This document shows, piece after piece, positions 14,736 to 18,603 of a stretch of DNA of 25,394 nucleotides. A model generated the notes under the pieces. The model saw only the letters and a program-made list of their open reading frames with translations, was not told where the DNA came from and did not search any database. The stretch lies in contig JAYOTF010000002.1 in assembly GCA_038150265.1 (NCBI GenBank), positions 143,252 through 168,645 of the forward strand. Reading direction: 5' to 3'. How positions within the stretch are numbered: position 1 is the first letter of the stretch; the number at the start of each line of letters is the position of its first letter. The translations under genes and the position numbers were made by a program. The stretch comes from Deltaproteobacteria bacterium. Lineage in GTDB: Bacteria; SAR324; NAC60-12.

Positions 14736-15509
14736 ATGGAGGTCATTCCCATTCCCTGTCTGAAGGACAACTACGCCTACCTGCTGATCTGTCCCGATAC
14801 TCGCGAGGCCGCGGTGGTGGACCCTTCAGAAGCCCCTCCGGTTCAGCAGGCGCTGCAGGACCATCAGGCCCAACTGGTCGCCATCTTCAACACGCACCAC
14901 CACTGGGATCATGTGGGGGGCAACGAAGCGCTCTTTGCCGCGTTTCCAGGAATCCGGGTCTACGGACATGCCTCGGATCAGGGGCGCATCCCGCAGCAAA
15001 CGGAATTCCTTGAAGAAGGAAACACGGTTGAGTTCGGGAGCCAAAGTGGCGCTATCACACACAACCCCGGACACACCACCGGCGCCATTTCCTACATCTT
15101 CGGAGACTCGGTCTTCACAGGCGATACACTGTTTGCTGCCGGATGCGGACGCCTGTTTGAAGGCACGGCCGAAGACCTGCACCGCTCCTTGAACAAGCAG
15201 ATCGGCCGACTTCCGGACTCCACTCGGGTCTGGTTTGGACACGAGTACACGGCTCGGAACCTCGAGTTTGCGCTGGAGGTGGAGCCCGGCAATGCCACTG
15301 CTCGCCGGAAGCTGGCTGAGGTCCGGACCCTCCGGAATGCCGGAAGGTTCACCACACCCTCCACGCTCCGCTCCGAGCGGGAGACCAACCCCTTCATGCG
15401 CTGTTCCAGTCCCGAAATCCGGGAGCGCGTCCTTCAGGAAGACCCTGGCAACGACCTCTCGGAGGTGGCGGTGCTCCGGGTGCTTCGTTCTCTCAAAGAT
15501 CAGTTCTGA
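14736..15509 (+). CDS. gloB: Hydroxyacylglutathione hydrolase (glyoxalase II)
   Basis: DNYAYL, THHHWDHVGG (HxHxDH), PGHT, FTGDTLFAAGCGRLFEG, GHEYT, ETNPFMR. Confidence 0.96.
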   Translation: MEVIPIPCLKDNYAYLLICPDTREAAVVDPSEAPPVQQALQDHQAQLVAIFNTHHHWDHVGGNEALFAAFPGIRVYGHASDQGRIPQQTEFLEEGNTVEFGSQSGAITHNPGHTTGAISYIFGDSVFTGDTLFAAGCGRLFEGTAEDLHRSLNKQIGRLPDSTRVWFGHEYTARNLEFALEVEPGNATARRKLAEVRTLRNAGRFTTPSTLRSERETNPFMRCSSPEIRERVLQEDPGNDLSEVAVLRVLRSLKDQF

Positions 15510-15519
15510 ATCCCAACCG

Positions 15520-15545
15520 CTGAGGCGAGCGGCTACTCGCCTCAG
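15520..15545. terminator. Perfect 10-bp hairpin between convergent genes, probable bidirectional terminator or RNA-stabilising stem
   Basis: CTGAGGCGAG-cggcta-CTCGCCTCAG; no clear U-tract. Confidence 0.5.
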
Positions 15546-15949
15546 ATGTTGCGCAACGTGATGCCGAACTGGTGTCGGATCATGTTGAGCAGGTAGGGGT
15601 CGTTTTCCAAACCGGCAAACCGGATCTCCGTCCGGATCTTCTCGCGGATGGTGATGAGCTCCTGCTCCGTGGTGCTCATGTCAATTTCCTGCTGCAGGTT
15701 GGAACGTCGCAACGTATTGACAACGTCCATGCGCAGCCGATGTTTCAGTCGCCGTAGCTGCTCGGCAGGAATGGTCCCCAGCATGCTCTCAATCTCAGAC
15801 TGGGTATGGCCCATCAGAGAAAGCTTGAGCCAGATGGAGTACACATTTCCCCGGGTATCAGCGACCGGCTGTTGGCCCAATCCCGGAGGAACTCCCACCA
15901 GGAGGACCACCAGCAAGGCAACCAGGACGACTTTCATGCGAAAGTTCAT
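15542..15949 (-). CDS. Hypothetical exported helical protein (135 aa)
   Basis: AGGAAA RBS; hydrophobic N-terminus 'MKVVLVALLVVLLVGVPPGLG'; helical mature part. Confidence 0.75.
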   Translation of the reverse strand: MNFRMKVVLVALLVVLLVGVPPGLGQQPVADTRGNVYSIWLKLSLMGHTQSEIESMLGTIPAEQLRRLKHRLRMDVVNTLRRSNLQQEIDMSTTEQELITIREKIRTEIRFAGLENDPYLLNMIRHQFGITLRNI

Positions 15950-16098
15950 GTCAGTTTCCTAACACGGGTTTACAGAAAGCGGCACCGCTCCTCACTTCAG
16001 TATCAGTAAAGGTCTGGAACGGGTCCGCGTTGGGTAGCGCTCCACGTCACACACGGGCCCAATTGGACACCGCGCGGAGGGAGCGTTCCCACAATTCA

Positions 16099-16853
16099 GC
16101 ACTGCACTCCCGAAATCCCGAGCCCCCCACTTTCCGGAAACAAGACGGATCTCGCTCCGCTCCGAAGGCGTTCGGCGGTTCCGGACCCAATCCGGCAGGC
16201 AAGGAGGCTTCTCCTTCAAGCTGGACGGATTCCGACCTTCCGTGGCTTCTGCCACTTCAGATAAACCTCTCCCCCTCCGGACCTGACTAGGCCGAATCCA
16301 CCGAGTTCTCCAAGCGCCACCGAAACGAGACCCGGGGCGTCCTGGAGTGAGTGGCACCCACCTCCGGGACCGGTCAAAGGCATCCCGGAGTCCGGATCAG
16401 GCCTGTCGTCCAAGGGGAACGGTCCGCTTTCGATGGAAAGCTTCCGGGCCCTGTTGGGAGCAGCACCTGGCACAGACACCAGCAAACACTTCGACAGCAT
16501 CACCGATGGTTCGTGAAGACGAATGAAGGCCCAGCCTCCTCATGGAGTTCAGGACAGAATCCGAGGAGCCATGGGGCGTCAGCAGCAGGCCCACCAAGGC
16601 AACCAAGGGTGTGGAGGGAAGACACAGGTCTGGGAAAACACTCCGGGGCTCAAGAGGTCGAGCAGGCCGACCTCTCCCTTGAGTCGCAGAGTCTGAAAAC
16701 TCGACCAGCGGGCAGCCTTGCTTCAGAAGAAGCACCTGTCCGGATGAGCCTCAGTTGTTCCCCACAGGGATGCGTCTGTCCTCCGACGGTTCCTTGAGGA
16801 GCGCCACGAACACCAGTCCGGGGCCGCGTTTCAGGAAAACGGGAGTGCAGTGC
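16099..16853 (+). ncRNA. Candidate large structured non-coding RNA (755 nt), class unknown
   Basis: Perfect 14-bp end-to-end helix 16099-16112/16840-16853; more than 15 nested helices; G-U wobbles and A-rich loops favour the + strand; no credible CDS. Confidence 0.55.
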
Positions 16854-17004
16854 AAGCTATCAAAGACCGATTATGGATCAGCTGCTTCTTCCAGAAGGAG
16901 CCAAACCAGGGACTCTTGAGGCGAATGGGACACCTCTCGAAGTTCCCTGATAGGGGAATCGGCATTTGAGGGGAAAACTTTAGGAGGAAAAGAGAAAAAG
17001 CGAA

Positions 17005-18603
17005 TCAGCGCAGGCCCAGGCGGGCATTGACCTGTTCAGGGGTGAGGACTTCATCGAGGAATTCACCGTTGCTCATCCGGAGGCGGACGCCTTCGGCATT
17101 TTGGTAGAGTTGGACGGTTTCGCCTTCTGAGGACTGCACCTCAAGGGCATAGACCGACTCTCCGTTGAGGTTTTCCGGAACAATGCGGCTGTTCGGGGTG
17201 GCCAGTCGGGTGGCGGTGCGCTTCAGGCTGTCCACCTGCTGCTTGAGGCGCTGGAGGGTTTGCTGGAGCTCATCAATCGAGAGCAGCTCCTTGACCTGTC
17301 CCTTCCAGAACATGAAGTAGCTCCCGGCCTGAGCAAAGGCAAAGGCGGCATCGCGTCCCAGCTCCGAGAGGAAGCTCTTCACGGCTTCCGACCGCTCCCG
17401 GTCGTTGCCATGCGAGAGGGCCATCAGCCGTGAGTCATTCTGGCGGACCTCGAGGTTGAGGCCAAAGTGATTGATGGTGTCGCGGAGTTCGATCTCCTGA
17501 GGGCCCTGATCCGGAACATTCCGGGCACGCAGGGTGTTGCCCTTGGGCTCAAACTTCAGCTCCTTCAGAGGATTCTTCTGAGGGGCAGGATTCAGCGGCA
17601 TGAGGAGGAACACCAGCAGGCCCACCACTCCAATGCCGGCAAAGAGGAACAGCAGGGGCTTGAAGTTGGTGGGCGGGGGCGGAGTGACCGGCGGAGGCGG
17701 AAGGGGGCTGGACTCGCGCTCCTCCTCCGATTCGGACCGCATGCTCTCAGAGATGATGGGCTCCGGAAAAAGAGACTGAACCTCTTCGATCAGCTGAGCG
17801 TTCCGTTGCTGAACGAGCTGAACCTTCTCCAGCAACTCAAAGCCCTGGGTCCGGAGGAAGATCTGTTGCAGCTCCTGCACCAGGTGCCGGAGGGCAGGGT
17901 GAGGGAACCCGGGCGGAAGCGGCGTTTTCTGGTAACTGGCCGTCCGTTGCCGCAACTCGGCTTCCAGCACAATTCCCATCTGCCGCAGCGCCAGCCACTG
18001 GTCTCGCCGGAAGAGCGGTGGCGCAACCGGGTAGTCGTCCATGTCATCTTCCGAGCTGGTGGCGGCCGTATTGGCGGCTGCGTCCGGCGTCTCATTGGCA
18101 CGGTTGGCCTCGGCACGTTCTCGGGCCCGCTTGCGTCGGGCATTGACCAGCTCCCACTGCTGCTTGTAGACCCGCCACTCTTCCTTGAAGTGGCTCCAGT
18201 TGCTCCGGAGCTGCTCGTTTCCGGCAAAGAAGCGGTTGAACAGTTCGGCAAACTGGGCATAGCCTTGCGGGTCCTTCTTCCGGACCAGAATGGAGAGCTT
18301 CCGGACCTTTTCCAGAAGCGCATCGACTTCTTCAGCCTGTTGGTCGATCTGGTTCCACTCGTCCTGGCTCAGGGGGCTCTTCCAGTCTTCAAGGATGGGG
18401 AAGACGAGCAGCTCCAGGCGGAGCATGTCGAGGAAGATGCGGTTGAGGTCAACGGTGCCGGAGGGGCCCGGATAGGTCTGGGTTTGCTGCTGAACGACCT
18501 CCCAGGCTGTGGCCTGGGCCTTGGTCTTGCGGTCCGGATCCACGAGGTCCAGGAGTTCGTCGAAACGCTCTCCGGTCAGGGGCAGGAGCTGGGGACCGTT
18601 CAT
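17005..18603 (-). CDS. Hypothetical bitopic membrane protein: helical/coiled-coil N-terminal region, Pro-rich linker, one TM helix, C-terminal domain
   Basis: 532 aa; Q/E/L-rich heptads; 'PLPPPPVTPPPP' followed by 'LLFLFAGIGVVGLLVFLLMPL'. Confidence 0.8.
   Translation of the reverse strand: MNGPQLLPLTGERFDELLDLVDPDRKTKAQATAWEVVQQQTQTYPGPSGTVDLNRIFLDMLRLELLVFPILEDWKSPLSQDEWNQIDQQAEEVDALLEKVRKLSILVRKKDPQGYAQFAELFNRFFAGNEQLRSNWSHFKEEWRVYKQQWELVNARRKRARERAEANRANETPDAAANTAATSSEDDMDDYPVAPPLFRRDQWLALRQMGIVLEAELRQRTASYQKTPLPPGFPHPALRHLVQELQQIFLRTQGFELLEKVQLVQQRNAQLIEEVQSLFPEPIISESMRSESEEERESSPLPPPPVTPPPPTNFKPLLFLFAGIGVVGLLVFLLMPLNPAPQKNPLKELKFEPKGNTLRARNVPDQGPQEIELRDTINHFGLNLEVRQNDSRLMALSHGNDRERSEAVKSFLSELGRDAAFAFAQAGSYFMFWKGQVKELLSIDELQQTLQRLKQQVDSLKRTATRLATPNSRIVPENLNGESVYALEVQSSEGETVQLYQNAEGVRLRMSNGEFLDEVLTPEQVNARLGLR

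Follow-up and report, generated by a model that had tools for sequence, protein, structure and literature searches.

A 25,394-nucleotide (nt) stretch of a SAR324 genome (hereafter the window) carries, in a gap between two minus-strand genes, a 755-nt element (16099-16853) whose ends are inverted repeats. With moderate confidence, we interpret this element as a genus-specific insert in the leader of a sigma-28 (FliA) messenger RNA (mRNA), which a long-range RNA helix, of a size suited to RNase III, would loop out. The original prediction for the same segment was a new class of 755-nt structured RNA from a gene of its own; such a class is not supported by our analysis.

Three species of one genus (g1) carry the element. 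They are represented by the genome of the window (G000) and by the genomes G001 and G002; a contig, L009, is near-identical to G001. The features of the locus are as follows.

15542-15949, minus strand: gene for a protein of 135 amino acids (aa) from no known family, detected in 53 out of 64 genomes belonging to the order
15950-16098, minus strand: 3' part of the leader up to the start codon, 149 nt, with the Shine-Dalgarno region AGGAAA; 67% identity to G002
16099-16122, minus strand: helix arm forming the 3' strand in RNA sense, that is, the originally predicted 5' arm and its extension (repeat and three-species comparison)
16123-16802, minus strand: fast-evolving non-coding interior of the insert (divergence, length change, no coding signature)
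16803-16824, minus strand: conserved hairpin just inside the helix (energies and G-U pairs)
16830-16853, minus strand: helix arm forming the 5' strand in RNA sense, that is, the originally predicted 3' arm and its extension (kept in three species)
16854-16955, minus strand: conserved 5' part of the leader with hairpins, about 100 nt (identity and RNAalifold)
16982-16956, minus strand: FliA/sigma-28-type promoter, with the -35 element at 16982-16975 and the -10 element at 16963-16956 (motif, specificity and conservation)

A sigma-28-type promoter lies upstream of a proposed long leader

The promoter reads TAAAGTTT-N11-GCCGATTC. It matches 14 of 16 positions of the FliA consensus, given as TAAAGTTT-N11-GCCGATAA in an excerpt of PMC7286023, and the mismatches are the last two bases. 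Within the 25-kb window it is the sole match at up to three mismatches (0.04 expected). The strict motif occurs four times in the 3.39-Mb genome, against none for the reversed control, and the other three matches precede genes with a Flagellin_N domain (90.6-99.4 bits). These flagellin paralogues are about 480 aa long, and each has a strict TAAAGTTT-N11-GCCGAT 48-73 nt before its ATG (C5:90513-90537, C11:77795-77819 and C41:21960-21984; L031-L033). The genome encodes FliA itself (262.8 bits; cut-off 189.6), RNase III (224.3 bits; cut-off 166.25), and CsrA and FliW, both above curated cut-offs. The csrA and fliW genes adjoin on the same strand (C4:13079-13765; L034, L035), indicating that a FliW-CsrA partner-switch module is present.

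The promoter motif is preserved in G002, G001 and the genera g4, g11 and g12, and its sequence suggests use by FliA, with a transcription start near 16950. It shares its motif type with the FliA class 3 promoters of the three flagellin genes of this genome. Unlike those, whose motifs lie 48-73 nt before the ATG, it would produce a leader of about 1 kb (1009 nt from motif to ATG), and the encoded protein is in no known flagellar family. A scan for consensus sigma-70 promoters and intrinsic terminators detected no sigma-70-like site on either strand of 15400-17200.

The closing helix is retained in three species

As had been predicted, the arm GCACTGCACTCCCG (16099-16112) is matched over 14 base pairs (bp) by its exact reverse complement, CGGGAGTGCAGTGC (16840-16853). 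By our own arithmetic, about 0.003 perfect 14-mer inverted pairs within ~1 kb would be expected in this gap. The proposed continuation beyond an AAA/AAA internal loop, TCCCGAG/TTCAGGA, likewise pairs with one mismatch, and with it the arms measure 23 nt and are 83% complementary. Both arms and the extension are present in all three element-carrying species. On the minus strand, each species forms a helix of 14-17 bp, a short internal loop and a further 6-8 bp; pairs were counted by script, as a MAFFT alignment of the whole element put the G001 arm in the wrong place.

Across species the arms are unchanged over 11-14 nt, compared with 53-59% identity at neutral sites. Where the helix does differ, from CCCG/CGGG in G000 and G002 to CCTG/CAGG in G001, pairing is maintained. 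The same holds for the second helix, which is TCCCGAG/TTCAGGA in G000, TTCCCGCG/TGCAGGAA in G002 and TTCCGGAG/CTCCGGAA in G001. Between G001 and L009 the arms show no substitutions and the interior 12. Judged by these comparisons, the closing helix is under selection and has been kept by evolution with compensatory changes, although three species are too few for R-scape-type statistics. The element is single-copy in its own genome. The two arms are the sole occurrences of the arm 12-mer there, and matches with one mismatch number 20, compared with 15 for the reversed control.

The interior diverges like neutral sequence

The gap spans 1055 nt (15950-17004) between the genes at 15542-15949 and 17005-18603 and is, as had been noted before, the only kb-scale non-coding stretch of the window. 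Its open reading frames (ORFs) have a G+C content of 0.51-0.67 at second and 0.56-0.65 at third codon positions, whereas real genes have ~0.4 and ~0.75. Codon-position G+C is therefore flat and, with no Pfam match to any of these ORFs, there is no coding signature in the gap.

The G000 interior (16123-16829) and that of G002 align at 53% identity, with 70 gap columns, compared with 56-72% at four-fold degenerate sites in three flanking genes. The alignable part of the two interiors is confined to 16487-16829 (63.6% over 352 nt, E-value 3e-24, same orientation), and the G001 interior aligns no better than a shuffle. Interior length varies from 707 nt (G000) to 661 nt (G002) and 473 nt (G001), and a 1-nt deletion polymorphism occurs at 16760. 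G001 and L009 differ by 12 substitutions in the 523-nt element (2.3%), compared with 0.73% in the gene. By these measures the ~700-nt interior is diverging at or above the neutral rate.

When the 12 recent substitutions were placed on minimum free energy (MFE) folds, two pairs were kept and four broken on the plus strand, and two kept and five broken on the minus strand. The interior had been described as a multi-domain RNA under RNA-level selection. Because its divergence is neutral and the substitutions mostly break predicted pairs, such a structure is without detectable selection, and its length is variable (473-707 nt).

Folding favours the minus strand in the conserved helices

Folding z-scores of the element, computed from 20 dinucleotide shuffles per strand, were -3.88 (plus) and -3.44 (minus). 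A background of 16 coding windows, each of 600 nt, gave a mean of -0.14 (standard deviation 1.27, minimum -3.0). These values are owed partly to the terminal helix. With the helix removed, the interior scored, on plus and minus strands respectively, -2.9 and -1.8 in G000, -1.3 and -4.5 in G002, and -1.9 and -1.2 in G001 (40 shuffles each). The element as a whole thus beats shuffled sequence, but the excess in its interior is modest and favours no consistent strand.

The original prediction placed the G-U wobbles on the plus strand and took them to point to a plus-strand transcript. We find the reverse. The MFE fold of the element has G-U at 12 of 255 pairs on the plus strand and 37 of 268 on the minus strand, and in the conserved helices it is mainly the minus strand that carries the wobbles. 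In all three species the whole element reaches a lower MFE on the minus strand. The terminal duplex has energies of -50.3 (G000), -45.7 (G002) and -48.6 (G001) kcal/mol on the minus strand, and -45.2, -47.1 and -41.4 kcal/mol on the plus strand; at three positions of the G001 helix, a minus-strand G-U corresponds to C-A on the plus strand. For the hairpin at 16803-16824, the minus-strand energies are -10.0 (G000) and -12.9 (G002) kcal/mol. The plus-strand values are -5.5 and -7.2, and its G-U pairs turn into A-C there. Since the conserved helices fold better on the minus strand, and the sole conserved promoter is the sigma-28 site on that strand, a plus-strand transcript is not supported.

Some pairings proposed for the interior do occur. 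The MFE fold contains local stems, CTCCGGGA/TCCCGGAG among them. Of the nested long-range pairings, GTTCGTG/CACGAAC (16509-15/16805-11) is indeed a perfect 7-mer pair. By our arithmetic, however, about 15 perfect 7-mer pairs are expected in 700 nt, so that these pairings are at chance level. The second, 16442-49/16816-23, depends on a palindromic CCGG core, and neither is preserved in G002, where the interior alignment is unreliable.

The expectation that no known RNA family would be found was borne out: Rfam 15 gave no match in the window at gathering thresholds. At an E-value threshold, 15900-17050 returned two chance-level matches only (E 5.6 and 5.9), and 12 related loci scanned against Rfam gave none.

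The element is confined to one genus and the promoter is not

A BLAST search of 40 relatives returned only the two same-genus genomes and one 35-nt match at chance level. Across BLAST and pattern scans of genome contigs and metagenomes, the element was found only in G001, G002 and one metagenome contig 98.6% identical to G001. In G001 the gene, insert and promoter block lie together in a different neighbourhood, which indicates that the three move as a unit.

A sigma-28-type motif was found upstream of the gene by regular expression (regex) at 18 of 20 loci, and two g12 loci carry TCAAGTTT. In 20 loci from distant genera, 11 have the motif by regex and two more by eye; seven are without it. 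Leader length, counted from ~8 nt downstream of the -10 element as far as the ATG and estimated from the motif offset in distant genera, is ~35 nt in g2, ~300 in g12, 332-341 in g11, 604-688 in g4 and 759-1001 in g1. Across genera, the leader would thus have grown from ~35 nt to ~1 kb, and the leaders outside g1 are without the element. In g1 it sits between a sigma-28 promoter and a conserved gene, and that promoter type is shared in many SAR324 genera, which speaks against the stand-alone RNA gene that had been proposed.

Long-range pairing within the leader was compared across genera. The long-range duplex beats 40 shuffles in all three g1 leaders, in the one g12 leader tested and in three of five g11 leaders; in g4 it was no better than shuffles (8 of 40 for L013; L014 was scored at a wrong regex site). 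A GTTCTT-like motif (GGTCTTTGA, GTTCTTAGA, GTTCTTGTAAA and GTTCTCAGC) precedes the long-range helix by a few bases, on its 5' side, among leaders of g1, g4, g11 and g12. It is short enough to arise by chance, and four of 15 leaders gave no regex match. We treat a common leader architecture across genera as a weak lead.

The g11 leader (L017-L029) has a mean column identity of 74% in 13 genomes and no Rfam match. RNAalifold predicts two long-range helices in it, with two-sided changes at 10 of 44 pairs, and it is itself a candidate for a conserved, structured leader. A covariance model of its 5' part (R1; 12 sequences, first ~135 nt) found no match in g1, g4 or g12 (best E 3.7).

A model for the insert

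In the model that we favour, FliA RNA polymerase would start near 16950 on the minus strand and transcribe a leader of ~1 kb into the 135-aa gene. In this genus the leader would hold a neutrally drifting insert of 0.5-0.75 kb. Pairing of the arms in the RNA would loop out the insert and bring the 5' leader (~100 nt) beside the 3' leader (~150 nt). A cut by RNase III within the helix would then remove the insert and define the 5' end at which the mature mRNA begins. Both one transcript across the whole leader and cleavage of the helix are steps that we infer. The helix is a plausible RNase III site because it amounts to about two turns of double-stranded RNA, and excision is plausible because the genome encodes RNase III and the helix matches its substrates in size. 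The earlier suggestion that the terminal stem could be an RNase III-type processing stem thus agrees with the selected pairing, with its compensatory changes in three species, and with the substrate size; the cut itself is conjectural.

Three metatranscriptome libraries yielded contigs over the gene and over 15926-16100, 16684-16889 and 16816-16966; one of these contigs spans the promoter-side arm. They show that the locus is present in RNA libraries, nothing more. The region 16103-16683 is uncovered, at a depth too low for interpretation, and one low-depth contig stops at 16100, at the base of the stem, which is not evidence of cleavage. In a DNA run (X5; 15516-16112 and 16803-16861), G000-like and G002-like strains occur together, and contigs break at the shared arm and block.

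Several observations weigh against the model. The RNA-library contigs are unstranded, have a depth of 2-5 and may contain DNA. One of them reaches 16966, ~16 nt past the proposed start, which suggests read-through from the upstream gene or another start site. The terminal duplex of G002 is slightly better on the plus strand (-47.1 against -45.7 kcal/mol). The covariation comes from three species, and arm-arm recombination at the DNA level should likewise give rise to compensatory changes in an inverted repeat. Because the g11 model finds nothing elsewhere, homology of leaders between genera is not supported beyond the promoter. Finally, the model offers no explanation for the retention of a neutral 0.5-0.7-kb insert in three species.

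A more specific proposal, which we consider possible if doubtful, is a system in mRNA resembling the intervening sequences (IVS) of ribosomal RNA (rRNA). Here, a selected ~24-bp helix would let RNase III excise the neutral insert, releasing a conserved ~100-nt 5' RNA and a trimmed mRNA that encodes the uncharacterised 135-aa protein, or else the arms would form a DNA switch of the flagellar regulon in this uncultured marine phylum.

Alternative explanations

The second of these options corresponds to a DNA inverton, in which the arms are recombinase sites and the interior flips within the leader, switching the downstream gene. We consider this unlikely. The layout of the locus, in which conserved inverted repeats flank a variable stretch that separates a promoter from a gene of the flagellar regulon, is what an inverton would present, and recombination between the arms would yield both arm-arm identity and apparently compensatory changes. 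There is also a precedent in the flgB 5' untranslated region (UTR) of Clostridioides difficile, where, according to an excerpt of PMC5386303, a 154-bp switch has 21-bp repeats and a recombinase encoded elsewhere. Inverted repeats there likewise flank a segment between a promoter and a flagellar-regulon gene; however, as that excerpt describes it, the C. difficile inversion is proven and its promoter is of the sigma-A type, whereas here all assemblies and contigs compared have one orientation and no recombinase lies nearby. Specifically, Pfam found no recombinase domain among the 41 ORFs of the 25-kb window, which leaves room for a distant enzyme. The interiors of G000 and G002 are homologous in the same orientation only, with nothing inverted, and L009 and G001 are collinear over the whole element. 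A contig from another sample crosses the 16840-16853 arm and agrees with the reference orientation, with no strand-changing joints reported, although contigs hide minority forms. The continuation of the helix past an internal loop and wobbles favouring one strand also argue against an inverton. One weak similarity, between G000 and the reverse-complemented G001 interior (26 nt and 85%, with E 0.007 when scored leniently), would fit an inverton.

Improbable, too, is a sigma-28-driven non-coding RNA that starts from the promoter at 16982-16956 and ends before the gene, which would then have its own, unrecognised promoter in 15950-16098. The leader is unusually long (1009 nt from motif to ATG), and UTR-derived, FliA-dependent small RNAs are known in E. 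coli, as reported in an excerpt of PMC10578931. Weak terminator-like sites exist on the minus strand (16539-16525 and 16160-16145), but the three terminator-like sites in total are no excess over shuffles (1.8, standard deviation 1.9). A search of 15950-16098 found no sigma-28-like or sigma-70-like site closer to the gene. In other genera the same promoter type stands 35-340 nt from the same gene with nothing between, and in g1 the interior has neither conserved sequence nor the signature of a CsrA sponge. That last signature belongs to a candidate that we rejected, a CsrA-sequestering RNA of the CsrB/RsmZ kind: GGA exceeds the expected number on both strands (38 against 26 in sense, 33 against 26 in antisense), and predicted unpaired GGA motifs number only 5 of 29, 5 of 29 and 1 of 13 (shuffled means 1.9, 2.9 and 1.9).

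We also give little credence to a relic of a mobile element, whether a miniature inverted-repeat transposable element or the remnant of an insertion sequence, with arms and interior lacking a present function. Terminal inverted repeats do bound a neutral, length-variable, non-coding segment that is missing from the leaders of other genera. A relic is nevertheless hard to reconcile with a single copy whose one-mismatch arm matches stay near the reversed control, with the lack of a target-site duplication at the ends (flanks TTCA and AAGC), or with invariant arms and compensated changes, which require selection or conversion.

A stand-alone, plus-strand, large structured RNA of a new class is very improbable: the plus-strand z-scores of the element (-3.88) and the G000 interior (-2.9), the lack of an Rfam match and the retention of the gap in three species speak for it, and against it stand plus-strand z-scores of only -1.3 (G002) and -1.9 (G001), the greater stability of the minus strand in three of three species and the pairs that the conserved hairpins lose on the plus strand, the neutral interior with its two kept and four broken plus-strand pairs, the poor conservation just left of 16099, and scans for consensus sigma-70 promoters and intrinsic terminators, which found no plus-strand promoter-like site and no plus-strand terminator between 16853 and the next gene.

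Relation to known systems

SAR324 bacteria are abundant in the ocean and are without a genetic system. The theme suggested by the favoured model is already known, and what is new here would be a helix-closed, probably excisable insert in a long SAR324 flagellar-regulon mRNA leader. The closest parallel is the IVS of 23S rRNA, which excerpts of PMC4990558 and PMC8708148 describe as a variable extra segment in a functional RNA, sporadic among relatives, with a long closing stem that is an RNase III site. Like an IVS, the insert described here varies in length and is closed by a long stem. It differs in that its host is an mRNA leader, in being larger than most IVS, in its putative rather than established cleavage and in holding no recognisable ORF or selfish element. 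If RNase III does cut the helix, the insert would be an mRNA counterpart of rRNA intervening sequences and would illustrate bacterial tolerance of large neutral insertions in regulatory RNA.

Correia elements (CREE/NEMIS) of Neisseria are short and occur in many copies. They are co-transcribed with a neighbour gene, and their paired repeats can bind RNase III and be cut, which changes expression (excerpt of PMC2649163). The present element is likewise bounded by inverted repeats and would be transcribed with a neighbouring gene. Unlike CREE, it is single-copy, measures 524-754 nt, has no visible target duplication and occupies one orthologous site in three species.

With the large RNA classes OLE, GOLLD and ROOL, the element shares a similar size and a strong terminal helix. 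Many conserved nucleotides and covarying stems define those classes, whereas conservation here is limited to the closing helix and a single hairpin next to it, and there is no Rfam match at threshold.

The 135-aa protein and the flanking leader

The strict FliA motif singles out three flagellin genes and one conserved, apparently secreted protein, which becomes a candidate motility-associated factor. This 135-aa protein has a signal-peptide-like N-terminus by our reading of the sequence, is 100% identical between G000 and G002, and is listed in databases only as a SAR324 hypothetical protein, with nothing above the Pfam cut-off. Its AlphaFold model is all-helical (predicted local distance difference test score 83.9). 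The model had no PDB fold match at E<=0.001, and its matches in the protein atlas were unnamed clusters only. We regard the protein as a candidate uncharacterised member of the SAR324 motility regulon.

Within the 3' part of the leader, conservation is poor directly left of 16099. At 15950-15970 (minus strand), the MFE fold of the leader places the start codon and some of the Shine-Dalgarno sequence in an 8-bp hairpin with a GAAA loop, CGUGUUAG-GAAA-CUGACAUG, whose sequence is identical in G000 and G002. The 5' part belongs to a block (16854-17004) with 85% identity between G000 and G002. RNAalifold of the 5' leader (four sequences, three distinct) gave 19 pairs, five with two-sided changes, and G-U pairs on the minus strand. 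A hairpin in 16854-16955 displays GGA in its loop (CUUCU-GGA-AGAAG in G000); it occurs in G000 and G002, not in G001, and could be a candidate CsrA site.

The gene upstream of the promoter block (17005-18603, minus strand) is an ORF of 532 aa with normal codon-position G+C and no Pfam match above cut-off; synteny holds for G002 and not for G001. A pseudogene of ribosomal protein L3 in the g1 gaps was considered and rejected, as tblastn of L3 against these gaps gave chance matches only (best E 0.095). In g4, g11 and g12 (L014, L015-L029) the gene directly upstream of the promoter encodes ribosomal protein L3 (Ribosomal_L3, 64 bits, in L018). At those loci the L3 gene is followed by a terminator-like hairpin and then by the sigma-28 promoter.

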